Assembly: GCA_965220085.1 (NCBI GenBank)
Contig: CBDCOZ010000001.1
Span: 32,001-96,000, forward strand
Source of the DNA: Candidatus Oxydemutatoraceae bacterium
Lineage (GTDB): Bacteria; Pseudomonadota; Gammaproteobacteria; Poriferisulfidales; Oxydemutatoraceae
DNA: 64,000 bases
Direction: 5' to 3'
Part shown: in pieces, positions 1,007-56,070 of the stretch
How positions within the stretch are numbered: position 1 is the stretch's first letter
Layout of the letters: each line of letters starts with the position of its first letter
The notes under the pieces: generated by a model
What the model was told of the DNA's origin: nothing
Seen by the model: only the letters and a program-made list of their open reading frames with translations
The model's database searches: none
Translations under genes and position numbers: made by a program

Positions 1007-2449
1007 ATGATGAAAAGAGTAATCTTTTTCATATTCATTGCCCTTCTTTGGGGCAATGGAAAGGCATTGGAGATTAAAATCACCAATGCAACAACTCAAG
1101 ACTATATTTGGGCTAATGATGCAGATTTTGAGGCTTCAACCTGGAGCTCTGTATTACAAGATATCCTCTCTGAGGATGTTTTACAAACATTTTCTTCTAC
1201 TGCAAACACAGTGTCAACTGATACTATTGTGGCAACAACCCCAGATCACTTTGAGGTTGATGAAAATCTTGCATCAGCAGAAACAACAACAAATTCTATT
1301 GAAAAATCTCCGCTATCTGCAGAAGAAATGAGAAAAAGATTTGTTGTATCTGACGGAAATAGTTCCACATTGAGAAATCATCAGTATGCTGTCTTACAAT
1401 CAGCATGCTTGGGATATGAACATTGGGTTGAAAGACCTAATGAGTGTAGAGTAAAGGAAAATTTTCTTAACGAGAATGGAACCGCACCATACACATTCCT
1501 TCATATCCAAAGTGGTGGAACACACCAAGAAACAGATGAGATTGTTGAGTTTGTGAAAGCTTCTAGTAAGACAGATGTTTTAACAAGATCTAGTCAGCCA
1601 AATGCCAATGATATTGTTGCAGCAGGAATGCATCCAAACTTTGTTGTTGTTACCTCTGCTGGAAATACGAAGAAAGATGATATTTTCGGGGAAAGAGTTT
1701 ATCGGAATGAAGACGGACTCTGGATACGTAGTCATAATGATAATCCTGTACAAGATCAGTATCAAGATGATTATAACAATGTCATTAACGCAGTCGAAGA
1801 AGATCGTGCTGCATATGTAGCTGGTTATGTTATCAGGAGAACAATAAATGGACTAACACGCAGCGTTAAAACAAGTGAGTTGGAACAAATTCCAGTTCAT
1901 CAACATATTAATGTTGAGGGTACACTGCAACGAGCATCTGGATCTACATCTTGTTCAAAATACACAGGGAGGAACTGTTTTTGGCTTCCATATGGTATTG
2001 AATATCAGAACGTGGAGGGTGAAAAAAAAGTAATTCCGGGAACCTCTTTCGGTTCCCCCAGATTTGGTGCAATCCTTGCTTCCGCCATAGCATTAGATCC
2101 TTCTATGAATGGAACAGATGCTTTGAGGTTGGCGAGGGAATGTGCAATCAAGGTTGAAAGGCTTGGTGGTGCAGGAATCCCAAACTGGCCATGTATGAAG
2201 AGAAAAATAGCGGAGAAAGTCAATAAGGAGTCTTTGAATATAACAATAAACGAAGACTTCTTGAGACTGGAAAAAGTAGTTGTAGATGCAATATCTACAT
2301 CAACTTATGTAACTCTTATCAATCCAAGGATTGAACCAGACATAGTGGTGCCTCCAGAACCGCCGCCGCCGCAGGTAGCATCGACATCGACGGAGTCAAA
2401 CGCTCTGCGCTTGCGCTTGCGCCTATTCCTAGAAGGCCCCCTGCGATGA
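1007..2449 (+). CDS. Secreted subtilisin-like (S8) serine protease with C-terminal LRLRLRLFLEGPLR motif
   Basis: AGGAGG RBS before ATG 1007; signal peptide MMKRVIFFIFIALLWGNGKA; VVVTSAGN oxyanion motif and GTSFGSP catalytic-Ser motif. The Asp and His of the triad are only tentatively VVSDG and HQYAV. Confidence 0.7.
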   Translation: MMKRVIFFIFIALLWGNGKALEIKITNATTQDYIWANDADFEASTWSSVLQDILSEDVLQTFSSTANTVSTDTIVATTPDHFEVDENLASAETTTNSIEKSPLSAEEMRKRFVVSDGNSSTLRNHQYAVLQSACLGYEHWVERPNECRVKENFLNENGTAPYTFLHIQSGGTHQETDEIVEFVKASSKTDVLTRSSQPNANDIVAAGMHPNFVVVTSAGNTKKDDIFGERVYRNEDGLWIRSHNDNPVQDQYQDDYNNVINAVEEDRAAYVAGYVIRRTINGLTRSVKTSELEQIPVHQHINVEGTLQRASGSTSCSKYTGRNCFWLPYGIEYQNVEGEKKVIPGTSFGSPRFGAILASAIALDPSMNGTDALRLARECAIKVERLGGAGIPNWPCMKRKIAEKVNKESLNITINEDFLRLEKVVVDAISTSTYVTLINPRIEPDIVVPPEPPPPQVASTSTESNALRLRLRLFLEGPLR

Positions 2450-2548
2450 GATTCGTCTGCGCCGAGCACACCCATCGAGGTCACGCCTGCGCCGTCCCCA
2501 TGATCACGACCCAACATCGACGCGCTCAAACAACGCAAAGCAGCGCGC

Positions 2549-2620
2549 GCCTTCGAGCTATGCGGCTTGTGAGCAGTCTGCACAAGCCGCACCTTTAATC
2601 TGTCTATGCTGTGGCGCTTT
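2549..2620 (+). repeat. Intergenic module A, copy 2
   Basis: Aligns with 911-982 with few substitutions. Confidence 0.8.
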
Positions 2621-2654
2621 CCAACTTAAGCGCCGCAGTGCCTAATCGCGCTCA

Positions 2655-2719
2655 TTGACAGGCAGCGCCGACCTGTTGTAGCATTGCAAACTTTGAATGC
2701 CAGCAAACAGAACTGGCAA
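2655..2719 (+). promoter_or_regulatory. Promoter/5'UTR module B, copy 1 (TTGACA-N18-TAGCAT, then TGCCAG..CTGGCA hairpin)
   Basis: Homologous to 4275-4339 and 6779-6846; each copy lies just upstream of a secreted-protein gene. Confidence 0.7.
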
Positions 2720-2776
2720 GACTATTACATCAAATTACTTCTATTGGAGTTATGAGTAGAGGAGATAAATTAAATA

Positions 2777-2953
2777 ATGAACAGAAACAACATTTTGATA
2801 ACATTCGTAATGGCTATGTCACTATTCCTTTCAGGATGTGCTAGTACATCAGAACTTCACCCTAAAACTAAAGGATGTATGGATATCTGTGACAAGTGCA
2901 AGTGCAGTGATAACGTGTCTGAGTGTTTTAAAGGATGCAACGCGTTGCCCTAG
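2777..2953 (+). CDS. 58-aa cysteine-rich lipoprotein (absent from the ORF track)
   Basis: Hand translation MNRNNILITFVMAMSLFLSG-CASTSELHPKTKGCMDICDKCKCSDNVSECFKGCNALP*; AGGAG RBS; LSGC lipobox. Confidence 0.75.
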   Translation: MNRNNILITFVMAMSLFLSGCASTSELHPKTKGCMDICDKCKCSDNVSECFKGCNALP

Positions 2954-3055
2954 CCACCCAAGATTTTTCCATTTAAGAACTAATAAACTCAGCAATTATA
3001 TGCGGCTTGTGAGCAGTCTGCACAAGCCGCATCTTTCTTTGAGGGGGAGACCGAT

Positions 3056-3334
3056 ATCAAAAAAGCGCTTTTAATCATCCTGACTTTTGCGCCTGCGCTT
3101 GTTGTTGCGAGTCATGCTGTTGGGTGGGAGGAGCCGATGTATTCGGGCAAGCGCAATGTGTATCGGTATCTCGGTTGCCACGAAGACATGAATTATGTGC
3201 AACTGCAACAGTGCGAGGCAGAGGCCGAGCGCATAATGCGGCAACCGGCTAAACCGGCTGAAGCGGCAAAAGCGTCGACAATGACACGCGGGGCAAGTAT
3301 GCGTATAATGCGGCCATCGAGACCTGGGGGGTGA
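3056..3334 (+). CDS. Small secreted protein with ATC in place of the start codon (possible pseudogene)
   Basis: GGGGAG RBS, then ATC-KKALLIILTFAPALVVASHA signal peptide, in frame with ORF 3137..3334. Confidence 0.45.
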   Translation: MKKALLIILTFAPALVVASHAVGWEEPMYSGKRNVYRYLGCHEDMNYVQLQQCEAEAERIMRQPAKPAEAAKASTMTRGASMRIMRPSRPGG

Positions 3335-3602
3335 TCGGAAAAGTTGCAACTATGCGCCGGAGCAAATGTTTCTCTGGCATCGGTCGCATAGTAAAACTGT
3401 CCGGTGCGTTGACAGAACCGTTACCGTGACAGAGCAGAAGACTCGATAACATTCCTCAGGTATCGAATGGAGTGGGGTGGCATGCGAAAGCATCGCCGCT
3501 CTGCTCCGCTTTTTGCAATGCGAAGCTTGCGCTCCGATCAGTTGATTGGTAACCCGTAGCATCGCGCGAACAACGAGCGACACCGCATAACGAAACTTTT
3601 TA
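3316..3602 (+). ncRNA. Candidate structured ncRNA 1, copy 1
   Basis: Follows ATGACA-N17-TATAAT; multi-helix fold conserved in the diverged copy at 6081-6378 with compensatory changes; no family recognised. Confidence 0.6.
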
Positions 3603-3760
3603 AACGTTCATAGTCTATGCTGTGGCGCTTTTCGAGTTGAGCGCCGCAGCACTCCGTAGCACAAACATGAAGCGCGAGGTGGACGGGCGGCCAAAGTTAC
3701 AACGGTCGCAAGCGACCGATGGAACTTTGCCCCCGCGCCGCCCGTGTGAGGCCGGTGCGC

Positions 3761-3926
3761 GACCCCGGCAGAAACACATCCGAGGCGCAAGCCAACCGCT
3801 TTGCGCAGGGAGTGCGAGCGTGCCGAGCGCGTACTGCGCCGCCAGCGCAAGCCGCCCTGTGCGCCGGAACAACCGCAAGCCCTGCGCCCGCCTCTGTGGC
3901 CGGCGCACAGGGTGGCGCCGAGCGAG
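3761..3926. ncRNA. Candidate structured element 2, copy 1
   Basis: Homologous to 6505-6670; 13-bp stem with a compensatory pair between copies; strand unknown. Confidence 0.5.
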
Positions 3927-4274
3927 AGGGTGGCCGCTGGCACCCGGGCCGAGGCAGCGGCCACTGCCCGCGACAGCCAAGCACAGCGCCGGCGACAACT
4001 GCGGACGCGGGCGGTGGCCGCTTGGTGCAGCGGCGAGCGCGCCGGAGGCGAAGAGTGCCCGCTGCCACCGGTGCGCGACAGGGTGTCCCCGCGGCCGGCG
4101 CGCGGAGGTCATGTGCCGTCGTGCGCGAAGTCATGCCGTCGAGGTGCGCGCACAATGGCCGCCGCTTGCGACAGCGCAAGCGTCGCCTGCGCACACCGGT
4201 GAAGCACCAAGCGACTGCGACGCCGAGGGATGATCCGTAATCATGCCGCAACCACATTACTACGGGTAGCCCAA

Positions 4275-4339
4275 TTGACAGGCAAGCCCTGCCTGTTCTA
4301 TAGTTGCAGACTTTCAATGCCAGCGGACAGAACTGGCAA
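4275..4339 (+). promoter_or_regulatory. Promoter/5'UTR module B, copy 2 (TTGACA-N18-TATAGT)
   Basis: Near-consensus sigma70 boxes; repeat of 2655-2719. Confidence 0.75.
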
Positions 4340-4357
4340 GCCTGCGATGTTTGAGGA

Positions 4358-6001
4358 ATGAAAAAATTACTTTGTATCATCCTGTTACTGGGGGCGGCAT
4401 CAGTGTGGGCAAACCCCATGACTGTGCCCCAAGATGTGTTAACCGTAGCCCAAGCCGACGGCTCCGAACCGAACCCTTTGCGTTTGCGCTTGCGCGTATT
4501 CTTGGAAGGCCCCCTGCGAGGGGGTAGCGGCTGTTCGTCTTCGTTGGGGGCCTACAGGGGTCGCGAAGCGATGTACTCGAAACTAGCAGCAGCCGGGGAG
4601 CCCCCAAAAGCCGAAGCTTCAAAGCCAATGAAATCTCAGGCTGTAGAACCCCAAGTCAAGGAGATCAAAATTGCGGGAGCCGCAACGCACGACAACCCCT
4701 TGCGGTTGCCGCGATTCAGCGAACAGGAAGAGCAAGAAATCCTCAAGTTAATCGAAGACAAAACAAGATTTTATACAAGCATCCCAAGAGAAGCGAATGT
4801 CGGCACAAACCACTGGGAGAACGTCGGACGAGAAGATGGTTTTGACATTTGGCAGTTGCATATCCATTCGCCCGAGGCTTTCGGCTTGCAAGTTGACTTT
4901 TCTGAATTTGCCTTGCAGGAGACTATGTTGGTTAAGGTGTATGGAACAAGCGACAGCGAGATGCCTTTTATCGGGGAGTATACGAGCGCGCGGGGGTACG
5001 AGGGCAATTTCACCTCCATATCCGTTCCCGGCGATACGGCGGTCGTAGAAGCATGGATGCCGATTGGCAGCGGCGCAGCGGCAGACTTCCCCTTCAAGGT
5101 CAGGCGTATCTATCATCAATTCAGAGACCGCGCAAACAATGTCAGAGGAGTGAAAAGTTTTTCACTTAGCGAAAAGCAAAATTATCCTACATGCCCCCTT
5201 CTGGATGGCCGCTGTCATTATCCGGGCGTGCGACTCCAGCCATGGCGAGCCACTGTGCAAATACTGGCCGACGGCAGCGCTTGTAGCGGGACTTTAATTA
5301 ATAGTCAGGATAGCAGCTCTTTCCCTCCGGATAGCGCTCTTCTTTTAACCGCTTACCATTGTATTGACAATATGGCAGACCCGGAAGCGGCAAGAGGCAC
5401 ACGCGTAAATGCCACGTTTAGCATCGGCTCATCGCCTTGCGCAAGTCCGCCGAACAGACCTACTGCCGCTGCCAGTGGCGCCCGATTTATTGCCGCGAAT
5501 CGGCAGGGTGATTACGCACTCTTGCTGGTTGAGAACATTATAGGCGACGGTGTGCTTTTGGGTTGGCGGCCCGGCAGACTGCCGGTGGGAGCAAGCCTTC
5601 AAATATTTCACCACGGAGTGGGGGTATCAACACAACAGTATGCAGAGAGCAAAGTAACGGGTTTTTCACTACACAGCGGAACAGGCGCTTTTCGTGATTG
5701 TGGAAATTCTTCCGGGTGTTCACACTATAGTCTCCACTTAGCAGAGGGCGGCACAAGAGGGGGATCATCCGGCGGGGGATACTTTGTAAGGGGCAGTGAT
5801 GGGGAGTTTTTCCTTAATGCTGTCCTTACGCATGGGAATCGGCGCACTTGCACAAACAAGGCTTCTTTGTTGCAGAAAATTAGCGAAGATGGCAGGGTTC
5901 TGTGCGCTCTTAGTGCGGGAGGGTACGGTTATGCTAGACGCGGTCAGCAATGCGCTGATAGTGCCCGCCCATCATATGGCCTTACAGGCCAGCAATGTTA
6001 A
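4358..6001 (+). CDS. Secreted trypsin-like (S1, lysyl-endopeptidase-like) protease with the LRLRLRVFLEGPLR motif near the N-terminus
   Basis: Signal peptide; CSGTLIN, LLTAYHC (His), GDYALL (Asp), GSSGG (Ser); long prodomain. Confidence 0.85.
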   Translation: MKKLLCIILLLGAASVWANPMTVPQDVLTVAQADGSEPNPLRLRLRVFLEGPLRGGSGCSSSLGAYRGREAMYSKLAAAGEPPKAEASKPMKSQAVEPQVKEIKIAGAATHDNPLRLPRFSEQEEQEILKLIEDKTRFYTSIPREANVGTNHWENVGREDGFDIWQLHIHSPEAFGLQVDFSEFALQETMLVKVYGTSDSEMPFIGEYTSARGYEGNFTSISVPGDTAVVEAWMPIGSGAAADFPFKVRRIYHQFRDRANNVRGVKSFSLSEKQNYPTCPLLDGRCHYPGVRLQPWRATVQILADGSACSGTLINSQDSSSFPPDSALLLTAYHCIDNMADPEAARGTRVNATFSIGSSPCASPPNRPTAAASGARFIAANRQGDYALLLVENIIGDGVLLGWRPGRLPVGASLQIFHHGVGVSTQQYAESKVTGFSLHSGTGAFRDCGNSSGCSHYSLHLAEGGTRGGSSGGGYFVRGSDGEFFLNAVLTHGNRRTCTNKASLLQKISEDGRVLCALSAGGYGYARRGQQCADSARPSYGLTGQQC

Positions 6002-6080
6002 TGGCCGGCGGGGCTCTGGGGCGCAAAACGGCTAAAGCGGCAACTGTTGCCCGTGGGGAAAATATGCATATAATGCCACT

Positions 6081-6378
6081 ATCACGATTTGAGGATTGAT
6101 TAAAAAGGTTGCAACAGTCGCCGGGGGCTCTTCTCCTTTAGCGCCCGACGCGTAGTGAAACTGTCCGGCAAGCATGTAAACTAATCGCCGAGACAGAGCA
6201 AAAGACTCGATATACATCCTCAGATATCGAACGGAGTGGGGTGGCATGCGAAAGCATCGCCACTCCGTTCCACTTTGTGCAATGACGACTGACACAAAAT
6301 TGTTTCTGTCGATGAGTGGAGCGGAACACCGGAGCATCGTACGAACAACGATCGACACGACCGAACGAAACTTTTCAA
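6081..6378 (+). ncRNA. Candidate structured ncRNA 1, copy 2
   Basis: TATAAT at 6069-6074; same helices as 3316-3602. Confidence 0.6.
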
Positions 6379-6504
6379 ACATTTGCAGTCTATGCTGTGG
6401 TGCGTTCCTGATGGGCACCACAGCACCCTATCGATCTTAGAAATGCATCGGCGCATCATCGACCTGCCGGACGACAGCACAAGAAGGAAGCGCCGCCCGC
6501 GTGA

Positions 6505-6670
6505 GACCCCGACAGAAACACATCCGAAGCGCAGGTCAACCGCTTTGCGCAGGGAGTGCGAGCGCGCCGAGAATGTAATGCGTCGCAAGCGCAAGCCGAC
6601 CAGTGCGCCGGAACAACCGCAAGCCCTGCGCCCATCTCTGTGGTCGGCGCACTGGGCGGCGCCGTGCGAG
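6505..6670. ncRNA. Candidate structured element 2, copy 2
   Basis: Homologous to 3761-3926. Confidence 0.5.
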
Positions 6671-6778
6671 GCGGTCCGTCTTCGCCGAGCACAAGCACCG
6701 AGCCTACGCCTGTTGCGCCGAGCATACCCACAGAGGTCCCGCAATAAGAATAAAAATCGCGTTTCGTAGTCATGCCAT

Positions 6779-6846
6779 TTGACACGCAAGCGCTACTTGT
6801 TCTATAGTTGCAGACTTTGTATAATGCCAGCAAACAGAACTGGCAA
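6779..6846 (+). promoter_or_regulatory. Promoter/5'UTR module B, copy 3 (TTGACA-N18-TATAGT)
   Basis: Repeat of 4275-4339. Confidence 0.75.
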
Positions 6847-6897
6847 ATTTAAACATTCGACTCTTGAGGAGACTAACATGAAAAAAAGGAAACTAAC

Positions 6898-7449
6898 ATG
6901 AAAAAATACCTTAATTACTTTTATTGGCCTATGTTAGGCACCGCGGCGCCTATGACTAGGACTGCGCCAATGAAAAAAGTCATTGCAACCGTAATCTTGT
7001 GTATCCTGACAAGCGCCGCTTGCGCCCCAAAAGACTTTCAATCCTCCTTAACACTTGATAGTGATAGGTGCAATGCGCAGTGGCTGCACCGCGCCAATGG
7101 TATAGAATTGACATCTGATAGTGATAGCGGCACCCCCCGGTTAACACTGCGTTCGCGGATGTTTGTTACTATTCAAACCAACACAGTGGGACGACTGGAA
7201 AACAGTTCGGGCAGAGTGTTAATCACTAGCGATGACGATGGATCAGGCAATAATTTCGGCATTAGGGGAGTTCTTGAGCCGGGCACTTACTACATAAGAG
7301 TTGCGGGCTTTCAGAACTTGCCGTCATGCCGTTCATCAACGGGCGAGGGTACTTCCTCCATAAGAGTTGCGGGCCATCAGAACACAACGCTGAACATAGA
7401 CGCCCGTGCTCCCCGTGACGGTGATCCTGTCATTGGCGGCGGAGGCTGA
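6898..7449 (+). CDS. Lipoprotein with a pre-peptidase C-terminal (PPC)-like domain
   Basis: Lipoprotein signal MKKVIATVILCILTSAAC (alternative start 6970); DDDGSGNNF...LEPGTYYIRV motif. Confidence 0.65.
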   Translation: MKKYLNYFYWPMLGTAAPMTRTAPMKKVIATVILCILTSAACAPKDFQSSLTLDSDRCNAQWLHRANGIELTSDSDSGTPRLTLRSRMFVTIQTNTVGRLENSSGRVLITSDDDGSGNNFGIRGVLEPGTYYIRVAGFQNLPSCRSSTGEGTSSIRVAGHQNTTLNIDARAPRDGDPVIGGGG

Positions 7450-7461
7450 GGCGGCGCTCTG

Positions 7462-7995
7462 TCACTGACCGAGTGTCGCCAGCTTGAACTGTAGCAGTTT
7501 GCCGCGCAGCTCTTCGGACAGGCCGCTGATGTTTGCATAGTCAAAATCCTGCGGGATAGCCGTTTGCTCGGTGTCCATCATGCGCTGAATTTCCTGCTCC
7601 TGACGCGGCAGGTAGCCGGCATAAGCGGCGGTCGCTTCAAGTTGCTCGACCGCTTGCTCGTCGTTTAGCGGGTCGGGCAGTTGCGCAAGGGCTACGATGT
7701 CGGCGTAGCGAATGTCCGGCCGGCGCAACAACTCGGTCGCACTGCAAGTGTTTTTCAGACTGATGTCGCGGGTGCTTGCCTCTTGCGGTGTAATCTTCAG
7801 TGCGTCAATCTCACGCACCAGATGGCTCTTGCCAATCCCGCCGATGGCCGGATTGCAACTCATCTGCCCGACAGTCTCTATGCTGTGCGTCAGCAGAAGC
7901 GTGTGCGCGCCGGTACGCGCCGCCGCCAGCGCCGCCTCGGTCCCCGCGTGCCCGCCGCCAACGACAATGACCTCAAATTCTTGCTGGTTAACCAT
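7462..7995 (-). pseudogene. mnmG: Internally deleted mnmG/gidA (tRNA U34 modification enzyme)
   Basis: N-terminus [14 protein letters not shown]...[22 protein letters not shown] fused in frame to C-terminal ELLRRP...YAGYLPRQ...DFDY...GLSEE; 177 aa versus the usual ~630 aa. Confidence 0.85.
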
Positions 7996-8030
7996 GCCGC
8001 ACATTCTATCACTCCCCCCTCGCGGGGGAG

Positions 8031-8241
8031 TCGGCGAGCGCAGCAAGCCGGAGAGGGGGACAGCCTCATACTTGCACTAACCAACACTCCCCCCTCGCGG
8101 GGGAGTCGGCGAGCGTAGCAAGCCGGAGAGGGGGAAAAGGAAAGTTCGTGCAAGAAGCTTCCCCTCACCGCATCGTCCATCGCCTTCGGCTCGGTCTCTG
8201 CACTTGGTGCAAGCCGGAAACTTTCCCGCAAGGGGAGAGTA
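8031..8241. repeat. REP/MITE-like palindromic repeats
   Basis: Two ACTCCCCCCTCGCGGGGGAGTCGGCGAGCG units plus an element homologous to 235-360. Confidence 0.75.
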
Positions 8242-8254
8242 TGCACGGTGCTAA

Positions 8255-10000: not shown

Positions 10001-10002
10001 CG

Positions 10003-10545: not shown

Positions 10546-10623
10546 GGGAAGTTTGTTGGAGCTTGCAAGGGGAGTGGAGCGATGCAGTGGGGGACAAGCC
10601 CCTGCCAGATGAACTCAACTCTT
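10546..10623 (+). repeat. 78-bp imperfect direct repeat, left copy
   Basis: Aligns to 26523-26600. Confidence 0.7.
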
Positions 10624-40743: not shown

Positions 40744-40819
<76 letters not shown>

Positions 40820-44072: not shown

Positions 44073-45455
<1,383 letters not shown>

Positions 45456-46731: not shown

Positions 46732-46843
46732 ATCTTTTGACTGTGAATCGGCCGCATGATGCATCCATATTATGATTTTACCGCTTCATATCATAATATG
46801 GGTTTCCCTGCCGGCGCAGGGGCGATACATACAGAGAAAGAAG

Positions 46844-47338
46844 ATGACCGATTTCACTCATTTTGACAAGGGCGGCAAGGCGCGGATGGTCAATGTCGGG
46901 GCGAAGGACTTGACGCAACGTAGCGCGATTGCCGAGGGCCGCATCGCGATGGCGCAAAAGACGCTGGACGGCATTCGCGCGGGCGCGCACGGCAAGGGCG
47001 ATGTGCTCGCTGTCGCGCGGCTGGCGGGTATCATGGGCGCGAAGAAGACCGCCGATTTGATACCGCTGTGTCATCCGCTGAGCCTGAGCGGCATCACCGT
47101 TGATTTTGCAACGAGCGATGCGCCGCCGGCGGTGATGTGCCGGGCGCGTGTTGAGACCTGCGACCGCACGGGGGTCGAGATGGAAGCGCTGACCGCGGTG
47201 CAAGCGGCGCTGCTGACGATTTATGATATGTGCAAGTCGGCCGACCGCGGCATGACGATGGGCGGCATCGCGCTGATAGAAAAGCGCGGCGGCAAGTCGG
47301 GCACCTGGCGGCGCGGCGACGACGATACGCCGGCATGA
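46844..47338 (+). CDS. moaC: Cyclic pyranopterin monophosphate synthase
   Basis: [22 protein letters not shown]. Confidence 0.96.
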
Positions 47339-47384
47339 CGGGCTCGTTTTGCTGTTCGGCAAACAACAGACAGACTTTTTAACT

Positions 47385-48626
47385 ATGGCGATAGCGGGAA
47401 AACATATTTTGCTGGGTGTGTGCGGCAGTGTCGCGGCATACAAGGCGGCGCTCTTGTTGCGCGAGTTGCGGCGTCACGGCGCCGATGTGCGCGTTGTGAT
47501 GACGGCGGGTGCGAAAGAGTTTGTCACGCCGCTTACGTTTCAGGCCCTGTCGGGGCATCCGGTTGAGGAACACGCGTTTGACGGCGCCGGCGACGACGGG
47601 ATGAAGCACATCGCGCTGGCGCGCTGGGCGGATATGGTGTTGCTGGCGCCGGCGACTGCGAATGTGCTGGCGAAGCTGGCGCACGGCTTGGCGGATGATT
47701 TGCTGACGATGGTGTGTGTGGCGCAAGACACGCCGTTGGCGATAGCGCCGGCGATGAACCGGCAGATGTGGGAGCATCCGGCGACGCGCGACAATGCGAA
47801 GATATTGCAACAACGCGGGGCGAGGCTGTTAGGCCCGGCGCGCGGCGAGCAAGCGTGCGGCGATACCGGCGCCGGCAGGATGATGGAGCCCGCTGCGATA
47901 GCAGATGCGTTGATGAACTCGCCCGCCAGGGGGCGGCTTGCCGGACGGCGGCTTGTCATCACGGCCGGGCCTACGCACGAGGCGATCGATCCGGTTCGTT
48001 ACATCACGAACCGCAGTTCGGGCAAGATGGGTTTTGCGCTGGCGCGCGCTGCGGTCGCGCTGGATGCCGAGGTGGTGTTGGTGGCCGGGCCGGTGCGGTT
48101 GGCAACGCCCGCAAACGTGCGGCGCGCGGATGTGACGAGCGCCGATGAGATGGCGCGGGCGGCGTTGCGCGAGGCGCCGGGCGCCGATATTTTTATCGGT
48201 TGTGCCGCAGTCGGCGATTATCGCCCGGCACAGGTCAGTGACAAGAAGTTTAAGCGCGGCGACAGCGCCCTGTCCCTTGAGTTGGTTCCCGTCGCGGACA
48301 TACTCAAGGCGGTCGCCGCGCAGTCGCCGCATCCGTTTGTGGTCGGCTTTGCCGCCGAGACCGAGCGCCTTGCGGCGAATGCCAAACAGAAATTATTGGA
48401 GAAAAATCTGGATATCATCTTTGCCAATCGTGTCGGTTCGCGCCTTGACACCGGCTTTGACGGCGAGGACAACGAAGTGACGGCGTATTGGCGCGGCGGC
48501 GAGGCGGCGTTTGGCAAGGCGAGCAAGTCGGCGCTCGCCGGGCAGTTGATGGACTTGGTGGCCGAACATTTTTTGGCCCGGGTTGCGGACAATGGAGAAA
48601 CAAAAGGTACAACTCAAAATTCTTGA
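47385..48626 (+). CDS. coaBC: Phosphopantothenoylcysteine decarboxylase/ligase
   Basis: [36 protein letters not shown]. Confidence 0.96.
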
Positions 48627-49053
48627 CCCGCGCATCGGCAGCGAATTCCCGTTGCCGAGTTATGCGACCGACGGTTCCGCCGGTCTTGATTTGCGCGCGC
48701 TGCTTGACGATGCGCTGACCGTCGCGCCGGGCAAGACCGAGTTGATACCGACCGGCTTGGCCATTCATATCGGGACGCCGGCGCTGGCCGCGGTAATCCT
48801 GCCGCGCTCCGGACTCGGGCACAAACACGGGATCGTGCTCGGCAACCTGACCGGTTTGATCGACTCGGACTATCAGGGGCAGTTGTTTGTGTCGTGCTGG
48901 AATCGCGGCGACAAGGCGTATGCGGTGGAGCCCGGCGAGCGCATCGCGCAGATGATTTTCACTCCGATCGTCCGCGCCGACTTCGAAGTCGTCAAGGAAT
49001 TTAAGCAAAGCGCGCGCGGGGCGGGCGGTTTCGGACACTCCGGTCGCCGATGA
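48592..49053 (+). CDS. dut: dUTPase
   Basis: [32 protein letters not shown]. Confidence 0.97.
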
Positions 49054-50426
49054 ACGCCGCGATTGATCCCGCCATCTTCCGCGCCTACGACATTCGCGGC
49101 GTAGTTGACTCCCAGTTGAACGAGACGGTCATGCGCCTCATCGGCGCCGCGCTTGCGACGCGCTATCCGCAAGTCAAGCAAGTGGCGCTCGGTCGCGACG
49201 GGCGCTTATCCGGCGAGCGGCTGATGTGCGCGCTGAGCGAAGGCTTGCGGCAGTGCGGCGCGGATGTGCTGGATGTCGGCGAAGTGCCGACGCCGGCGCT
49301 CTATTACGCGGCGGCGGAACATTGCGACGGCTCCGGTTTGATGGTCACCGGCAGCCACAATCCGGCGCAATACAACGGCGTGAAGATGATGATGGCCGGG
49401 CATACGCTGGCGGGCGACGATGTGCGCGCCGTCTATGAGACGATGCGCGCCGGCGCATTCGCTGACGGCGACGGCTCGGCGCATACGCTGGATGTGCGCG
49501 ATGGCTATGTCGGGCGGATTGCCGCCGACATTACCGTTGCCCGCCCGTTGCGCATCGTGATCGATTGCGGCAACGGAGTCGCCGGGCCGGTTGCGATGCG
49601 GTTGTTCAAGGCGCTCGGTTGCGAGGCAGTCGGTTTGTATTGCGATGTGGACGGGCGTTTTCCCAACCATCACCCGAACCCGAGCGAGGTCAAAAATCTG
49701 CGCGACTTAATCGCCGCCGTGGCGGCGCAAGGCGCTGCGATCGGTTTTGCTTTTGACGGCGACGGCGACCGCCTCGGTGTGGTGGATGACAGCGGCAATG
49801 TCATCTGGGCCGACCGCCAGATGATGATCTATGCGCGTCACCTCCTGCGCGATCATGCCGGCGCGGGGGTGGTCTATGACGTCAAGTCGTCGTCCCGCCT
49901 GACCCGATTGATCAAGGCATGCGGCGGCAAACCGTATATGAGCCGCACCGGGCATTCCTACATCAAGGCGATGTTAAAAGAGACCGGCGCCAAACTCGCC
50001 GGCGAGATGAGCGGGCACATATTTTTCAGCGACCGCTGGTATGGTTTTGACGATGCGCTGTATGCGGCGGCGCGGATGCTTGAGATCATCGCCGCCGACG
50101 GGCGCGCGAGCAGCGATATATTTTCCGAGTTGCCGTCGTCTTGCAGCACGCCGGAGCTGACGATCGACTTTAGCGAGGAAGGGATGCAACACGATTTTAT
50201 CGAGCGCTTTGTCGCGCGCGCGAGTTTTGACGGCGCCGTGATCAACAAGACCGACGGCTTGCGCGCCGAGTTTGACAACGGCTGGGGTCTGGCGCGGGCG
50301 TCCAACACGACGCCGTGTTTGGTGTTGCGCTTTGAGGGCGATGACGAACAGGCGCTGTCGGCCATTCGCGACAAGTTTCGCGCGCAACTGCTCGCGACCG
50401 ACCCGTCGCTGGCGCTAGATTTCTGA
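49050..50426 (+). CDS. algC: Phosphomannomutase/phosphoglucomutase
   Basis: [32 protein letters not shown]. Confidence 0.93.
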
Positions 50427-50626
50427 GCGATACGATGGACAGTCCGCGCCAAAGAGTCAAGTTTTTAAGCGAAGCCCTGCCGCACATACAGAAGTTTCGC
50501 GACAAGTTTCGCGCGCAACTGCTTGCGACCGACCCGTCGCTGGCGCTGAATTTCTAAGATACGATGGACAGTCCGCACCAAAGAGTCAAGTTTTTAAGCG
50601 AGGCGTTGCCGTACATACAGAAGTTT
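50366..50626 (+). repeat. 129-bp tandem duplication of the algC/argB junction
   Basis: ATGGACAGTCCGC at 50435 and 50564; the copies differ by several substitutions. Confidence 0.9.
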
Positions 50627-51430
50627 CGCGACAAGGTCATCGTCGTCAAATACGGCGGCAGCGCGATGACAGATGACGCGCTCAAGCAACAATTCGCGCG
50701 CGATATCGTGTTGCTCAAAGCGGTCGGCATGCATCCGGTTGTGGCGCACGGCGGCGGCCCGCATATTTCAAAGAACCTCGCGCAGGCCGGCATAGAGGCG
50801 CGGTTTGTCAACGGCTTGCGCGTCACCTGTGCCGAGACGATGAAGGTCGTGGAGCGCACTTTGTCCGAAGTGAACCGCGGCATCGTTGCCGGAATCAATG
50901 CCGCCGGCGGCGAGGCGCTCGGCGTGACCGACCACATGATTCGCGCGCGGAAGTTGCCGCCGGTCGAAGAGAACGGCAAGCCGGTCGACCTCGGCTATGT
51001 CGGCGAAGTAGTCGGCATCGTGCCGCGGCTGCGGGAGATCGTCGCGCATCAAACACAGGTTGCGGTTATCTCGCCGGTTGCAAAAGGCTCCGACGGCGGC
51101 AGCTATAACGTCAACGGCGATATCGCGGCGAGCCATATCGCGATCAGCCTCGGCGCGGAGAAACTGATCATGCTGACGGATACCGCCGGCCTGTTGGACG
51201 AGCAAGGCCGCCTGATCAGCGAGGCAAGCCGGAACGAAGTCGCCGCCATGATCGGCAAAGGCATCATTCACGGCGGCATGCTGCCGAAAGTGCAATGTAT
51301 GTTTGACAGCGTGGATCAGGGAGTGCGCTTAGCGCACATCATAGACGGCCGCGTCGCACACGCCTTGTTGCTTGAATTGCTGACCGACGAGGGTGTCGGC
51401 ACCCTGATTCACAACCATCGCGCAACCTAA
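50564..51430 (+). CDS. argB: Acetylglutamate kinase
   Basis: VKYGG, HGGGP, GLRVT, NVNGD, GGMLPK. Confidence 0.96.
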   Translation: MDSPHQRVKFLSEALPYIQKFRDKVIVVKYGGSAMTDDALKQQFARDIVLLKAVGMHPVVAHGGGPHISKNLAQAGIEARFVNGLRVTCAETMKVVERTLSEVNRGIVAGINAAGGEALGVTDHMIRARKLPPVEENGKPVDLGYVGEVVGIVPRLREIVAHQTQVAVISPVAKGSDGGSYNVNGDIAASHIAISLGAEKLIMLTDTAGLLDEQGRLISEASRNEVAAMIGKGIIHGGMLPKVQCMFDSVDQGVRLAHIIDGRVAHALLLELLTDEGVGTLIHNHRAT

Positions 51431-51548
51431 GCGCGGCATTCATCGCAAGCGACACATCGCTCGCCGCAACGTCTTTGGTCAGGCTACCGAGTGAGACAAA
51501 GTTGGCACCGTAGCGGGCAATATCCGCCGGGTTTGTAAAGTAAGCCTT

Positions 51549-51850
51549 TTAAATTCCCCGTGCGTCATCGTAGAGCGAGCTAAATTCAAGTTTGCGTACG
51601 CGGAATTTTGTCCCGTGATTGCGGACGCTGCCAGTGGGATTCGTCCTCGCGTCAAAGTCCACAAGCACGGCCCCGCGCACAATCCCCTCAAACAATTCGG
51701 ACGGGAGAAAATCCTTCAGAATCTTCATCTCCATGAATCGGACAATGTCGCCCTCCTTTTCGCCGCGCACATAAATGCAGTTCGGCAGTTTTTTGCTTGC
51801 TGTGCGGGACAGTTCATCTTTTGTCCAAACAATCGGATACTTCAATTGTC
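51549..51850 (-). pseudogene. C-terminal fragment of an MvaI/BcnI-family restriction endonuclease
   Basis: W....L.....KKL...IYV...VDFDART...RNHGTKFRV; the upstream part of the ORF is only translated tandem repeat. Confidence 0.6.
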
Positions 51851-51865
51851 CGCCGCAACGCTCCC

Positions 51866-52047
51866 GCACTTCCCGCGACCAAGCGGCGTGTTTCGGCGCG
51901 ACATTTTCGTGACTAACAGTCACCCGCGCCGCCGCCGCCGTCGCCAACGCCCGCGCTTCCCGCGACCAAGCGGCGCGTTTCGGCGTGACATCTTCGCGGC
52001 TAACAGTCACCCGCGCCGCCGCCGCCGTCGCCAACGCCCGCGCTTCC
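51866..52047. repeat. 87-bp tandem duplication
   Basis: CGCGACCAAGCGGCG at 51874 and 51961. Confidence 0.9.
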
Positions 52048-52097
52048 CCCAACCAAGCGCGTGTTCGACGCCTTCCGGATTGAAAGTGACTTCCGCC

Positions 52098-52949
52098 TTA
52101 TTGCCCGTCGCCGTCACCCGCAATCCGCGCACGGTCGGTGCGCCGCCGATCGTTTTTCCAAGCGCGGATTCGGTCTCGCGCCATCCGGCAGTATTCGGCG
52201 GAGTTGTCAATGCCGACGTAATCGCGTCCCAATTCCAGCGCCGCCAGCGCGGTTGTCCCGCTTCCCACAAACGGGTCCAAAACGATTTGGGCGGCGGTCG
52301 CCTGTACGCAACGCCGCGCCAGCGCGAGCGGAAACGGCGCGGGGTGCGGGTTGTCGCCACTTTCCTGTCGCAAGTCCCAAACATCGCCCAGCGCGTTTGC
52401 TTTCGGCGCGAGGTTGAATTTCGGCTTGGCGATGAGATACACGCACTCGTAAGTCGGCAAGAAATAGCCGGGATTGAAATTGATTCCGCCCTTGCGCCGC
52501 CAGATAATCACCTGTCGCAGCGGAAACTCCGGCACGATGATTTCCATCGGGTCTTCTGCTAGCCCGGCTTGCGCTCTGGGCTTGTGATTGTAGAAGAGCG
52601 CGCCGGTAGGCTTGAGGACGCGCAGAATCGCCGCGATGCATTGCTGTTGCCAACGGACATACTCGGCGCGCGGCATACAATCGTTGTGGGCGTGATAGCC
52701 GTTGATGAGTTCGGTGCGCGGCCATTTGCCGCCGCTTCCGTTCTTCAGTCCGTTGCCGGTAGAGTTCTTAATATTGTAAGGCGGCGAGGTGACCGCGATG
52801 TCCGCCGACTCCGGCGGCATTTTCTCCAACACGCGGAGGCAATCGCCACAATGAATTTTGTTCAGCCAGCGAGAAAGATTTGCACACTCCGCCGCAACGG
52901 CAGGATTCACGGCGGAAAAAAATTCCATGCTGGAGTTTATCGCGCTCAT
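52098..52949 (-). CDS. Beta-class N4-C/N6-A DNA methyltransferase
   Basis: TSPPY before HPAPFP and DPFVGSGTT. Confidence 0.93.
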   Translation of the reverse strand: MSAINSSMEFFSAVNPAVAAECANLSRWLNKIHCGDCLRVLEKMPPESADIAVTSPPYNIKNSTGNGLKNGSGGKWPRTELINGYHAHNDCMPRAEYVRWQQQCIAAILRVLKPTGALFYNHKPRAQAGLAEDPMEIIVPEFPLRQVIIWRRKGGINFNPGYFLPTYECVYLIAKPKFNLAPKANALGDVWDLRQESGDNPHPAPFPLALARRCVQATAAQIVLDPFVGSGTTALAALELGRDYVGIDNSAEYCRMARDRIRAWKNDRRRTDRARIAGDGDGQ

Positions 52950-52984
52950 GGCTTTGCCATTCTCACATATCTCGTTGGAAAGTC

Positions 52985-53078
52985 AAACTTCAGAAGGTCA
53001 AACTTCACTACAGCGGACACTAGAGAGGGCAATCTGCCTGTGCGCTTGCGCCTTTTCCTGAAAGGCCCATTGCGGTAG
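52985..53078 (+). pseudogene. Orphan 3' end of a motif-bearing gene (...NFTTADTREGNLPVRLRLFLKGPLR*)
   Basis: Motif and stop at 53034-53078, followed by the same intergenic module as at 54670; left boundary approximate. Confidence 0.6.
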
Positions 53079-53093
53079 TGCGCGTGACTGCGG

Positions 53094-53177
53094 CGGAGCA
53101 GGGGAGTATTATGGGGCGCACACGGGAGCGAGGCAGGATATGCAGGCATTTGCATGATTTGCATTTTGTGGTATAGT
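53094..53177 (+). promoter_or_regulatory. Intergenic module C, copy 1 (34-bp core plus extended -10 TGGTATAGT)
   Basis: CGGAGCAGGGGAGTATTATGGGGCGCACACGGGA identical at 54670. Confidence 0.7.
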
Positions 53178-53373
53178 GCGACAGTTAACTAATTCACAAA
53201 CAGTTTATGGAACATAAACAATACTCAATTGTTTGTGCCTCATTAAAATGTTGTTTGTGTACATGATAAAAATCAGGAGGCATACTATGATTTGTAGCAG
53301 AGCACATAGCATTGAGGGCGCCAACACTCATGGCACAGCCGTGTTCACCGAACAATCCATGAGGAGTAATAGC

Positions 53374-54657
53374 ATGAAACGACAAGTTTTTAATACCCCC
53401 CCCCCCCCCCCCGCACAGTGGCGGGTAACACGAACCCGGCGTAGCCTTTGGGCGCTGTTTGTTGTCTGCGCTCAAGCGCAGGCGCCGACCAACACGACCG
53501 CTACCGGCGAACCGGCGGTGACGGCGGCGGACGGCGCCGACCTGACCATGGCGGGGCCGAATGCGAACAGCACGACCCTCGCACAGCGGGGAGCGACGAT
53601 GATACGGCGTAGCCTCTGGGCGCTGATGTTGCTCGCCTTGATTACCGTACGCGCTCAAGCACAAGCGCAGGACACCGCGCCGGACTTTGGCGATGCGTCG
53701 GTCACCGGTTCGGACCTGATTTGGCTGACCGACCGGGACCTCAATCTGGTCTTGCCCGCGGCCACCGGCGGCAATGGCACCATCACCTACAGCCTGTCGC
53801 CGACTCTGACGTCTGCCACAAGACTCAGATTTGATGCGGCCACCCGCACCATCAGTGGCCGACCGGCTTTTTCTGTCGGCACCAACAACTTCACGCTGAC
53901 GGCCACCGATGCCGATGGCGATACCGATACGCTGACATTCCGCACCAAAGCCGCCGCAGATGCAGTACCGGCCTTTGCCGCTGATGCGAACATAGCCGAC
54001 CAGATGCTGGTGCGCGACAATGCCGTCACCCTGACCCTGCCCGGGGGATCCGGGGGGAATACCCTCCGCACTTCCGATTTCTTGGCATTCTTGGTTCCGC
54101 TCACTTACACGCTGACCCCGGCGTTGCCTGCGGGGCTGACCTTTGATGCGGACGCTCGCACCATCAGCGGTACGCCGACAGCGGCTGCTGCCGAGGCGCA
54201 GTACACCTACAGGGTTGCCGATGGTGACAGCAATACCCTGTCCAGCGATGAATCTACCCTGACTTTCACCATCACCGTAACTTGCGCCAGCGGCGAAACA
54301 CACACCGCCACGGATCTGGCACCGGACTTTGGCAGCGCATCTGTTGAGGATCAGGCCTGGGAAGTGGGCACGGCCATCACCGACCTGACCCTGCCTGCGG
54401 CCTGCGGCGGCAATGGCACTCTCTCGTATGCACTGTCCCCGGCCCTGCCCGCCGGTCTGACCTTTGATGCCGCCAGTCGCACCATCAGCGGCACACCCAC
54501 GGCCGCCGCCCCTGCCGCCACTTACACATATACAGCGGGGGATGGCGACAGCAACACCGCAAGCGGCGATGCGGACACCCTGACCTTTAGCGTAACAGTG
54601 GCAAGTGTGGACATACGCCTGCGCCTGCGCCTGTTTCTTGAAGGCCCGCTGCGATAG
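53374..54657 (+). CDS. Secreted protein with three putative Ig (He_PIG/cadherin-like) repeats and C-terminal IRLRLRLFLEGPLR
   Basis: LP.A.GGNG...Y.L.P.LPAGLTFDA..RTISGTPT repeats; GAGGAG RBS/ATG 53374 and a second RBS/ATG with signal peptide at 53599. Confidence 0.85.
   Translation: MKRQVFNTPPPPPAQWRVTRTRRSLWALFVVCAQAQAPTNTTATGEPAVTAADGADLTMAGPNANSTTLAQRGATMIRRSLWALMLLALITVRAQAQAQDTAPDFGDASVTGSDLIWLTDRDLNLVLPAATGGNGTITYSLSPTLTSATRLRFDAATRTISGRPAFSVGTNNFTLTATDADGDTDTLTFRTKAAADAVPAFAADANIADQMLVRDNAVTLTLPGGSGGNTLRTSDFLAFLVPLTYTLTPALPAGLTFDADARTISGTPTAAAAEAQYTYRVADGDSNTLSSDESTLTFTITVTCASGETHTATDLAPDFGSASVEDQAWEVGTAITDLTLPAACGGNGTLSYALSPALPAGLTFDAASRTISGTPTAAAPAATYTYTAGDGDSNTASGDADTLTFSVTVASVDIRLRLRLFLEGPLR
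53396..53412 (+). repeat. C17 homopolymer at the 5' end of the Ig-repeat gene
   Basis: Counted directly. Confidence 0.9.
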
Positions 54658-54669
54658 CGCGAGCCACCA

Positions 54670-54751
54670 CGGAGCAGGGGAGTATTATGGGGCGCACACG
54701 GGATGCGGCAAGATACAAAGACATTGCGGGATTCGCGTTTTGTGGTAGAGT
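54670..54751 (+). promoter_or_regulatory. Intergenic module C, copy 2
   Basis: Homologous to 53094-53177. Confidence 0.7.
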
Positions 54752-54851
54752 ATGTACTTACTTACAGAGTTTCTCCGGATACAGACTGTCAAGAGACATT
54801 AGTATGGATTGCAAAACTTACGATACGACCCCCGCGCGGCGGGGAGCAACG

Positions 54852-55929
54852 ATGATACGGCGCAACCTCTGCTCGCTGATGCTACCAGCGCTGTTTGTTG
54901 TCTGCGCTCAGGCGCAAGAGCAGATCAACACTGCCGCTGCTACCGGCGAACCGGCGGTGACGGCGGCGGACGGCGGCGGACGGCGCTAATCTGGCTACGG
55001 CGGGCCCCAATGTGAGCAGCACACTGACCGCAACCCGCGGCACCATAGCCGATGCCGATGGCATCACCGCTTTCACCGCCAGCTGGCAGTGGCAGGAGCT
55101 TGAAATTGCGACCGTCTCCACCGCCACTTTCACGGGCAGGACGAAGCGGCTGGACGATTATCTCCTGACCGTTAACTACGCGCCAGCCCCGGCCTATCCC
55201 GCCGCCTTGCGCTCGGCTTTGCACCGCTGGATTGGCGGCGACCCCGATTATTACGCCAACACCGACTTTGCCGGTTCCGAATCGGAAATAGTCAGCTTCT
55301 CCCCGCGCTTTCTGAGCGCGTTGCATCTGAACCCGGTCCTCTTTCCGGAGGATGCCGTTTTCCAATGCCAGCGAAACGCCGCCACAAACAGGGCGGTGCT
55401 TCACTGCTTTTATTCCGAAATTCCGCAGATGCCCAATGTCACCAATATCACCGGCGCCACCTCTGCGACTTTCACTCCCATGCAGGCGCAGGTGGGCAAA
55501 TTCCTCCGCGTCTGCGGCACCTTTGATGATGATGCCGGCAACAGCGAGACGCGTTGCTGGACTTCCGTTGCGAAGGTCAACGTTGCCGCCACCGGCGAAC
55601 CGGCGGTGAACGGCGTCCCAAGAGAGGACAGCCCACTGACCGCAGACATCGGCACGATAGAAGATGACAATGGCATCACTGACATCGCCCCCGCCTGGCA
55701 GTGGCAACAGGGCGACACAGCCGATGGCTCCTTCGCGAACATAGCAGGCGCTACCGCCGCCACCTTCACGCCCATGCAGGCGCATGTGGGCAAATTCCTC
55801 CGCGTCTGCGGCACCTTTGATGATGATGCCGGCAACAGCGAGACGCGTTGCTGGACTTCCGTTGCGGCGGTGCTCCAAGCCGACATACGCTTGCGCTTGC
55901 GCCTCTTCCTGGAAGGCCCGCTGCGATAG
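54852..55929 (+). pseudogene. Secreted Ig-like repeat protein with C-terminal IRLRLRLFLEGPLR, frameshifted after the signal peptide
   Basis: MIRRNLCSLMLPALFVVCAQA signal peptide; extra 10-bp unit at 54961-54980 shifts the frame; two ATGEPAV...WQWQ...GAT.ATFTP...DDAGNSET repeats. Confidence 0.75.
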
Positions 55930-56070
55930 CGCGAGCAACCCGTAGCACTTGCGCGACACACCTCTTCTTGAAGGCTCGCTGCGATAGCGGGCGCCGACCT
56001 GCGTTTCTTTCTCGCGCCATTGCGGGACTCCCGCGCGGGTGTCGGCGCCGATTCGCAGCCATCGCGCGCC

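Follow-up and report, generated by a model that had tools for sequence, protein, structure and literature searches.

In a 64,000-nucleotide stretch of the small genome of a marine Candidatus Oxydemutatoraceae bacterium (contig CBDCOZ010000001.1 of assembly GCA_965220085.1, positions 32,001 to 96,000; this whole stretch is referred to as the window), unrelated secreted proteins share a conserved 14-residue tag, usually at the extreme C-terminus. Sequence comparison identified this tag with the first strand (beta1) of a widespread C-terminal module composed of a beta-sandwich and a dockerin, and the rest of the module, minus beta1, is encoded in the same genome as a separate protein, which we call the acceptor. 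In the best reading of these data, which we judge moderately probable, the tag would mark cargo for the acceptor, and the acceptor would serve as an adaptor to a lipid-anchored cohesin scaffold. The results that carry this reading are computed: the homology between tag and beta1, the splitting of the module over separate genes, a fused relative, conserved gene order, the recognition of a dockerin and a cohesin, and co-folding with controls. The tag is unlike any described sorting signal and would be a new kind of sorting tag. Viewed as a tripartite sorting signal, it has 14 residues with Arg at every second position, no hydrophobic run, and an end that reads ...EGPLR followed by the stop codon. 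As the initial annotation had noted, it lacks a transmembrane (TM) helix and matches no described sorting-domain model: the carriers in the window were scanned with both the Pfam and NCBIfam libraries, and no model covers the tag. The literature searched, as far as its text was available, holds no description of the tag or of beta1 core variants, and the accessible portions of the work on Oxydemutatoraceae and Porisulfidus contain nothing on the tag.

The whole genome (2,492,841 bp, or 2.49 Mb, in three contigs) was scanned in six frames with the regular expression [LIVM]R[LIVM]R[LIVM][FLY]L[EKQDR]GP, a scan that the initial annotation had proposed, and 214 copies of the motif were found. The motif is followed by Leu-Arg and a stop codon in 209 of the 214 copies, giving a C-terminal ...GPLR; three copies are N-terminal, just behind a signal peptide, and the reading frame continues beyond the motif in two. 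Ten positions of the tag are invariant in protein among the regex copies, while the codons at those positions are free to vary. The Arg codons are CGG (105), CGC (95) and CGT (13), Leu is split between TTG and CTG, Phe is encoded by TTC (154) or TTT (60) and Glu by GAA (156) or GAG (55), which upholds the earlier suggestion of protein-level conservation with synonymous codons. Since the regex itself demands the invariant residues, the genome DNA was also searched with nhmmer, and 286 matches were obtained at E<=10, 72 of them not in the regex set. About 15 of these 72 are near-full-length and in frame with one or two substitutions (FLEDPLR, FLEGSLR, FLECPLR and similar), and the others are mostly partial copies inside short tandem arrays downstream of tagged genes. 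A chance origin of the motif is excluded, because the DNA pattern for the tag core occurs at 216 sites in the genome and the reversed-pattern control at 0.

The motif might also arise from repetitive DNA, for example a terminator or a mobile repeat that has inserted at the ends of genes, and the sequence after the stop is indeed repeated in families, with tandem arrays that hold the 3' half of the tag. However, synonymous variation is heavy and all three stop codons are used in the 209 terminal copies (TAG 132, TAA 50, TGA 27). The 120 nt 3' of the stop fall into 76 clusters, the largest having 51, 30, 14, 11 and 7 members. On the upstream side, the 30 residues ahead of the tag form at least 62 classes below 30% identity, and the 100 residues ahead of it form 17 clusters (63, 41, 36, 14, 11, 10, 2 and 10 singletons). 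This variation in codons, stops and flanks argues that the tag is not a DNA repeat. Furthermore, the copies lie in frame at the ends of long open reading frames (ORFs), with at least 100 residues upstream in 187 of the 209, and protein-level variants occur in other genera. We therefore regard the DNA-element explanation as effectively refuted, its remaining probability being negligible. The tag is conserved at the protein level and is under strong selection there.

To trace the motif more widely, one genome per species was scanned with the tag pattern (185,579 species), which gave 48 loci. Thirty-two are in gammaproteobacterial records, many of them titled Ca. Oxydemutatoraceae or Ca. Porisulfidus, and in 31 of these a stop codon follows 1-6 codons past the core, the remaining one leaving its contig. 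The other 16 loci are in other phyla, where chance was reckoned to give about 17. Three of the 16 (Calditrichia, Flavobacteriales and Chryseobacterium) belong to one family, whose members carry xRLRVFLEGPF at an internal position, as the opening of a C-terminal module of ~240 residues. This module is marked by …IVDWVVVELR…RHRNHL… and then two Asp-rich loops, and it terminates proteins as varied as choice-of-anchor B, a trypsin-like protease and InlB-repeat proteins. It consists of a beta-sandwich followed by a dockerin, and no Pfam or NCBIfam model matched the sandwich part in the members scanned. At E<=1e-3, profile A3 matches 17,362 representative clusters, of which 6,322 remain at E<=1e-30. 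The best 150 of the 17,362 clusters were inspected, a list that is biased towards the acceptor-rich profile: ~106 are cis forms with the beta1 motif, 31 were flagged as stand-alone without beta1, two of these flags being judged wrong, and 13 are unclear. The commonest beta1 versions among the cis forms in these 150 are VFLEGPF (14), AFLEGPF (7) and VFLEGPY (6); because they carry FLEGP, the tag core, (R/K)-V/L-F-L-E-G-P, is by sequence the consensus beta1 of the module family.

Variants of the strand point the same way. In one relative (G009), the beta1 of a 650-residue cis-module protein reads VEINVLLGGAVRG, and the S1 protease of another genome of the same genus g5 (G004) ends in VRLKVYLGGAVR and a stop, so that tag and cis beta1 vary in step. 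We also observed that G009 encodes, at G009:C1:652514-654463 (L177:3514-5463), a protein with a cohesin-like N-terminal domain and a complete cis module (beta1, sandwich and dockerin), resembling an adaptor scaffoldin. The module is sometimes present in 2-5 tandem copies per protein (loci L143-L148, proteins P0003-P0152). Two further loci of the species scan, L102 and L110 (Bacteroidales and Eudoraea records), carry FRLHVF[FL]EGPL[RQ] with a stop 4-6 codons on, in ORFs of 41 and 32 residues; they may be chance matches or relics of the same strand.

The dockerin assignment concerns the last ~70 residues of the module, as positions 180-254 of profile A3 match dockerins in the PDB: 2vn6_B (E 5.8e-7), 5k39_B (E 2.2e-5) and the X-Doc entry 2b59_B (E 2.4e-5). 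Pfam Dockerin_1 scores 25.1 bits on the module protein P0005 (cut-off 22.9) and 18.1 bits on the acceptor P0024, and the acceptor of this genome has no Pfam match, Dockerin_1 included.

A hidden Markov model (HMM) built from seven cis modules was run on all six-frame ORFs of the genome, and it matched exactly one, G000:C3:469157-470134 (E 4.8e-19). The gene starts at 469175 (G000:C3:469175-470134) and encodes a 320-residue protein, MKIQLKQLVFYFATTMAFVVLLSAHANA then QRSMNTGLSDFIPADDPY…, in which a signal peptide (…SAHANA) runs into QRSMNTGL…, aligned from model position 16, right after beta1. The genome therefore lacks a complete module: it encodes 209 strands on their own and a single module without the strand. 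In alignment A3, the cis beta1 falls on the signal peptide of the acceptors. Stand-alone homologues of 258-340 residues are present in 15 of 18 family relatives, and in all 22 that were inspected the signal peptide leads straight into 'M..L…P..DPYC' with no beta1. In the acceptor family (alignment A2), His194 and His197 of an RHRNH motif are also invariant, as is the pair Asp105-Trp106; His194, Asn196 and His197 lie at the tag interface in the co-fold described below. The acceptor might have a metal site or a catalytic role.

For the co-fold, acceptor residues 29-320 (alignment A2) were modelled with a 44-residue tagged C-terminus (alignment A1), the first row of the partner alignment being the C-terminus at window positions 2315-2446 (ORF 929-2449). 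Three runs gave ipSAE values of 0.80, 0.81 and 0.77, and the best of three controls gave 0.00. In the calibration of the tool, 116 of 157 solved complexes attained this ipSAE mark, as did 2 of 215 mismatched pairs; these counts hold only roughly here, as custom alignments were supplied. The runs have at least 75% of their contacts in common, and the pLDDT (predicted local distance difference test) of the partner is 50-54. Only partner residues 29-42 (NALRLRLRLFLEGP), which are the tag, contact the acceptor. The co-folded LRLRLR lies between acceptor residues 170-173 (AVQF) and 214-217 (AFDF) and packs on V104, V107, V109 and L111 of the invariant VVDWVLV strand. The model supports, but does not show, that the tag binds the acceptor. 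It predicts an acceptor fold that is short of one strand and filled in trans, as in donor-strand systems. Homology, architecture, natural fusion and this one co-fold are the basis of the predicted link between tag and acceptor.

The gene order around the acceptor suggests where such a complex would be attached. Eleven base pairs after the acceptor gene begins a gene for a 1369-residue protein that ends …GGGGGGGGAIALNEVIGLLALLGLVAYGIRRQRRYE, a tail with poly-Gly, a TM helix and a basic cluster, and the next gene encodes a rhombosortase (TIGR03902, 96 bits, cut-off 84). The genes gspL and gspM lie ~4 kb upstream of the acceptor and a secretin gene ~15 kb upstream (C3:454279). An acceptor followed by a large ORF on the same strand was seen in 16 cassettes from 14 genomes, and, of the 10 large ORFs that were read to their end, 8 have a GlyGly-CTERM-like tail. 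The rhombosortase is next in 5 of the 12 genomes in which the downstream DNA was checked, and in two relatives (G002 and G017) a tagged gene (…LLRVKLFLEGPFR, then stop) is directly upstream of the acceptor. The large ORFs have in common only the C-terminal end and an N-terminal domain of ~245 residues with four invariant Cys, which, given the dockerin, was predicted to be a cohesin. The AF2 model of this domain from alignment A4 has a pLDDT of 61.4 (76-91 in its core blocks) and a pTM of 0.62. Foldseek against the PDB returned 39 matches at E<=1e-3; every one of the matches listed is a cohesin (types I-III), the best being 5lxv_C (E 5.9e-6); the domain compares with 1g1k_A at a TMt of 0.64. 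No Pfam family, Cohesin included, matches the 1369-residue protein at E<=0.01, and a homologue search with A4 for longer proteins found only the query's own protein. The link between adaptor and anchor, which we infer from conserved gene order and the assigned fold, is thus a predicted one. Apart from the anchor, the evident rhombosortase substrates in the genome are one S1 protease paralogue and one more GlyGly-CTERM protein. The literature found, in the parts available, contains no pairing of a dockerin with a rhombosortase, and, by titles and the openings of abstracts, the work on cohesins and dockerins in sponge symbionts looked unrelated.

GlyGly-CTERM proteins, as known from work on Vibrio VesB, are lipid-anchored and reach the surface by type II secretion. 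Taken together, the data suggest the following scheme. Some 200 cargo proteins would keep only a strand of 12-14 residues, usually at the extreme C-terminus and in three cases just past the signal peptide, and the acceptor gene (G000:C3:469175-470134) would supply the rest of the module, minus beta1. After Sec export, the tag would insert into the open sandwich of the acceptor by strand complementation, and the acceptor would attach, through its dockerin, to the cohesin-like N-terminal domain of the large protein whose gene begins 11 bp further on. If this anchor behaves as other GlyGly-CTERM proteins do, it would be lipid-anchored and carried to the surface by the type II secretion system (T2SS), whose gsp genes are just upstream. 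Cellular binding, assembly order, export route and stoichiometry are inferred from the computed parts, as is the fate of the tag on the mature protein.

The same split-domain evidence could also describe a periplasmic chaperone or targeting factor, in which the acceptor caps the tag only transiently, in the manner of PapD-type donor-strand complementation, and the tag is then released or cleaved. Such a factor would hand its cargo to either the T2SS or the anchored scaffold, and the ratio of one acceptor gene to ~200 cargo genes would suit it, as would the position of the cassette ~4 kb from the gsp genes. Nevertheless, the acceptor keeps a dockerin and always adjoins a cohesin-like protein, suggesting a stable bridge, and in the cis-fused forms of other bacteria the connection is necessarily permanent. 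No PapD-like chaperone, usher or pilin was seen in the acceptor cassette, in which no search aimed at these was made. We consider a transient chaperone unlikely.

Among 41 relatives, matches to profile A1 (40 C-termini) are confined to the organism's own family, in 12 of 18 family genomes, and none was found in the 22 genomes of three sister families. The matches are real C-terminal variants of the tag followed by a stop: IRIRVRVFLEGPLQ, IRLRIKVFLEGPLQ, VRLRLRLFLEGALE and …VFLEGAVIP. A wider DNA pattern gives 217 matches in this genome, 5 to 26 in 15 relatives, one in G005 and none in G001 and G008, its reversed-pattern controls giving 0-2. Tags and a stand-alone acceptor occur together in 15 of the 19 family genomes, and all 22 sister-family genomes, without exception, have neither part. 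Four family genomes depart from this rule. G008 (97% complete) has no tags and no acceptor and retains the cohesin-like protein. G001 (100% complete, in a tag-bearing genus) has cis forms only: it lacks tags, and each of its 25 module matches falls within an ORF of 687-17,496 residues; one module of this genome that was inspected end to end has its own beta1, VGARVYLQGAY. In G014 (85% complete, 230 contigs) there are tags and no acceptor was found, and in G005 the acceptor is present with the single pattern match.

These distributions also bear on the idea that the tags are functionless stumps, left after deletion of the module in the course of genome reduction. In its favour, genomes of the lineage are small, and decayed copies and duplications at junctions are numerous. 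But the 209 copies keep the ten invariant residues despite their codon variation and all stop right after LR, and near-full-length copies with amino-acid changes are few (~15 of the 72 extra nhmmer matches). Moreover, the tag is conserved across genera with lineage variants, and an acceptor without beta1 is kept in 16 of 19 family genomes. We find it very hard to credit that the tags are mere remnants.

The proteins that carry the tag agree with a role at the cell surface. ORFs of at least 100 residues are closed by 187 of the 209 terminal tags, and together they sum to 158,615 residues, or 19% of the genome by a longest-ORF measure that overestimates; they include proteins of 6,024 to 15,193 residues. 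Pfam scans of the five window carriers and 14 others gave He_PIG, cadherin, Cadherin_4, PPC, Calx-beta, Peptidase_S8, fn3, Trypsin_2 or nothing, which bears out the initial annotation in placing the tag on secreted proteins of surface type. A signal-peptide heuristic was positive for 109 of 187 carriers and 272 of 1,174 control ORFs of at least 300 residues. For the carrier at 55012-55929, the signal peptide is encoded by an ORF in another frame. A paralogue of the S1 protease in the window (G000:C3:1160881-1162548; 72% identity over 481 residues) lacks the tag and ends in a GlyGly-CTERM, whereas the window protease bears an N-terminal tag; G005 S1 proteases and G008 giant ORFs also have GlyGly-CTERM-like ends. 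These comparisons of tagged and GlyGly-CTERM paralogues and orthologues indicate that the tag occupies the place of a known surface-anchoring signal.

Alternatively, broadly as the initial annotation had it, the tag could be a free-standing sorting signal that is read by other machinery, for example an outer-membrane translocator, an insertase of the Bam/Tam type or a processing peptidase, and its resemblance to beta1 would then reflect evolutionary descent alone. The alternating Leu/Arg strand does recall a beta-signal, the carriers are exported, and no experiment joins the tag to the acceptor. However, the tag ends in Arg and not in an aromatic residue as an outer-membrane beta-signal does, the carriers are made of soluble repeat domains, and the N-terminal tag of three proteins is a misfit to a signal with a free C-terminus. 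No candidate machinery emerged either. The neighbours of tagged genes at 18 loci (20 kb each, from seven relatives) are housekeeping genes (NqrF, PNPase, S15, MsrB, GST, YchF and similar), an acidic complementary strand of the form ([hydrophobic][DE])x3 gave 10 scattered matches in the genome, none of them convincing, and no six-frame match to the autotransporter barrel PF03797 was found in the genome at E<=0.001. The S1 protease domain is not distributed like the tag: as a sorting peptidase it fails because it is present in tag-poor genera and missing from several tag-bearing genomes, and in the window the S1 protease is itself an N-terminally tagged cargo. A free-standing signal thus appears doubtful. 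The initial proposal of beta-strand addition to a surface anchor stands close to the cohesin-scaffold reading, while the outer-membrane translocator or dedicated peptidase that it also envisaged was not found.

Several points weigh against the scheme of tag, adaptor and anchored scaffold. The evidence is wholly computational, and passage of such complexes through the T2SS is unproven. A single acceptor gene and a single anchor gene must serve ~200 cargo genes, some encoding more than 10,000 residues. Co-occurrence discriminates weakly, because nearly the whole family has both parts, and G014, G005, G008 and G001 are exceptions; G008 has the cohesin-like protein without the acceptor, and G001 has cis modules without an A4-type cohesin match. 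The pLDDT of the cohesin model is only 61.4, with no Pfam Cohesin match in the anchor, and the signal-peptide heuristic is crude. The AF2 model of the cis module is of low-to-middling confidence (pLDDT 63.8, with 42-47 in the beta1 region) and is a poor guide to whether the tag sits where beta1 does in cis. The sandwich also has no significant Foldseek match in the PDB at E<=1e-3 (best X-Doc 5k39_B, E 0.043), and VIA-align reaches no more than Z 4.0 (5wec_B), X-Doc entries scoring Z 3.7. Finally, the co-fold may merely rebuild a domain that the model knows as one chain, indicating compatibility and not binding in the cell, and with a partner pLDDT of only 50-54 the fold of the partner itself is uncertain.

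Among known systems, the X-module-dockerin (XDoc) dyad of cellulosomal scaffoldins (PDB 2b59, 5k39 and 3kcp) is similar in combining a beta-sandwich with a Ca-loop dockerin and in placing many cargoes on a cell-anchored scaffold, and the acceptor likewise has a cohesin-like neighbour and a profile that matches solved dockerins. In contrast, the cargo here bears only one strand of the sandwich and neither dockerin nor sandwich, the organism is a Gram-negative gammaproteobacterium, the scaffold ends in a GlyGly-CTERM and not in an S-layer homology or sortase anchor, and the cargoes are adhesin-like repeat proteins and proteases and not glycoside hydrolases; the sandwich bears no significant resemblance to the X-module (Foldseek E 0.043; Z 3.7). 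Chaperone-usher and Bacteroidota type V pili also have an incomplete Ig-like sandwich filled by a foreign strand of alternating hydrophobic residues, but in the acceptor cassette there are no pilin, chaperone or usher homologues, the strand serves as a tag on ~200 unrelated proteins, a single dockerin-bearing adaptor would receive it, and no polymer is implied. With GlyGly-CTERM/rhombosortase systems there are in common an anchor with poly-Gly, TM helix and basic cluster, a rhombosortase gene that follows it and gsp genes nearby, whereas the tag itself, having no TM helix or basic tail, is not a usual rhombosortase substrate and would act via the adaptor and scaffold; the two signals alternate on paralogous proteases. 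As in SpyTag/SpyCatcher and strand 11 of split green fluorescent protein, where a strand of 13-16 residues at either terminus rejoins the rest of a beta-rich domain, the tag would complete its domain in trans, but it is natural, proteome-wide and presumably non-covalent, since it has no conserved Lys/Asn/Asp triad. LPXTG/sortase, PEP-CTERM/exosortase and type IX secretion C-terminal domains are likewise found at the C-termini of many unrelated secreted proteins. Unlike LPXTG and PEP-CTERM signals, the tag has no TM helix with basic tail and no NCBIfam model, and compared with the 70-100 residues of type IX domains it has 14, with no TIGR04183-type match among the five window carriers.

If the scheme is correct, the tag would be a new class of bacterial sorting signal, a strand that works by domain complementation with no membrane sortase or translocator. 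It would account for the surface retention of about one-fifth of the coding capacity of the genome (giant adhesins, cadherin- and Ig-like repeat proteins and proteases), and these tagged surface proteins probably mediate host contact. Cohesin-dockerin assembly would extend to Gram-negative symbionts and be joined there to rhombosortase/GlyGly-CTERM anchoring, a function could be named for a very large family of modules that Pfam does not cover, and the tag with its acceptor would offer a natural pair of peptide tag and binder for protein engineering. A wider reading is held more tentatively, at somewhat less than an even chance: a symbiont would have split its sandwich-dockerin module so as to load ~200 strand-tagged cargoes (~19% of the genome by longest ORF) through one adaptor onto a single lipid-anchored cohesin scaffold, perhaps preassembled before passage through the T2SS, and the cis module of ~17,000 clusters, including those of Bacteroidota and Calditrichota, would be a general cohesin-directed anchor.

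In the window, all tagged sites are on the forward strand, and the five that the initial annotation had reported (2405-2449, 53034-53078, 54613-54657, 55885-55929 and the internal 4478-4519) were recovered at the same positions. The first carrier, of 506 residues (929-2449), has a signal-peptide-like N-terminal segment and the C-terminal tag ALRLRLRLFLEGPLR, with the 14-residue tag and stop at 2405-2449; its earlier label as an S8 protease found no backing, as the ORF has no family match in Pfam or NCBIfam. The trypsin-like (S1) protease cargo at 4358-6001, of 547 residues (Pfam Trypsin_2, E 0.019), is laid out as signal peptide, 22 residues, tag, GGSG linker and protease, with no C-terminal extension. 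Its N-terminal tag, LRLRLRVFLEGPLR at 4478-4519, is one of the three such copies in the genome, and the N-terminal 60 residues, comprising signal peptide and tag, are the sole part common to three different proteins. What had been described as the tail of an orphan gene is indeed a tag, LPVRLRLFLKGPLR at 53034-53078, with Lys in place of Glu, but the ORF that it closes (52569-53078) is dubious, lying for the most part antisense to ORF 52098-52949, and is probably no more than a remnant tail.

The He_PIG repeat carrier at 53233-54657 (Pfam He_PIG, E 2.3e-24) has its tag at 54613-54657. Two signal-peptide-like segments are present in this ORF, …RRSLWALFVVCAQAQA… and MIRRSLWALMLLALITVRAQAQAQ; the start is likely at the internal signal peptide MIRRSLWALMLLALITVRAQAQAQ, which suggests a duplicated 5' end ahead of the real start. 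The Ig-like repeat carrier at 55012-55929 (tag at 55885-55929) has its signal-peptide part in ORF 54687-54989, which is in another frame and 22 bp away, and the two ORFs are probably one gene that is frameshifted or affected by a sequencing error. The decayed copy reported 3' of its stop is present as a partial copy, the 3' half of the tag at 55962-55987, although the match is weak and at the DNA level (nhmmer E 0.0058). This site is one of several places where a tagged gene is trailed by a tandem array with a unit of ~56 bp, others being G000:C3:1659728-1660524 and C3:648598-648908, and each unit consists of the last codons of the tag (…LEGPLR, stop) and the sequence 3' of them. A second recurrent sequence, PLRLRLFLQDPCNNAGILR, has the first half of the tag, then a different continuation and no stop (G000:C3:359904, 734790, 739054, 833976, 1506421 and 773229), and may belong to some other repeated element or family of genes.

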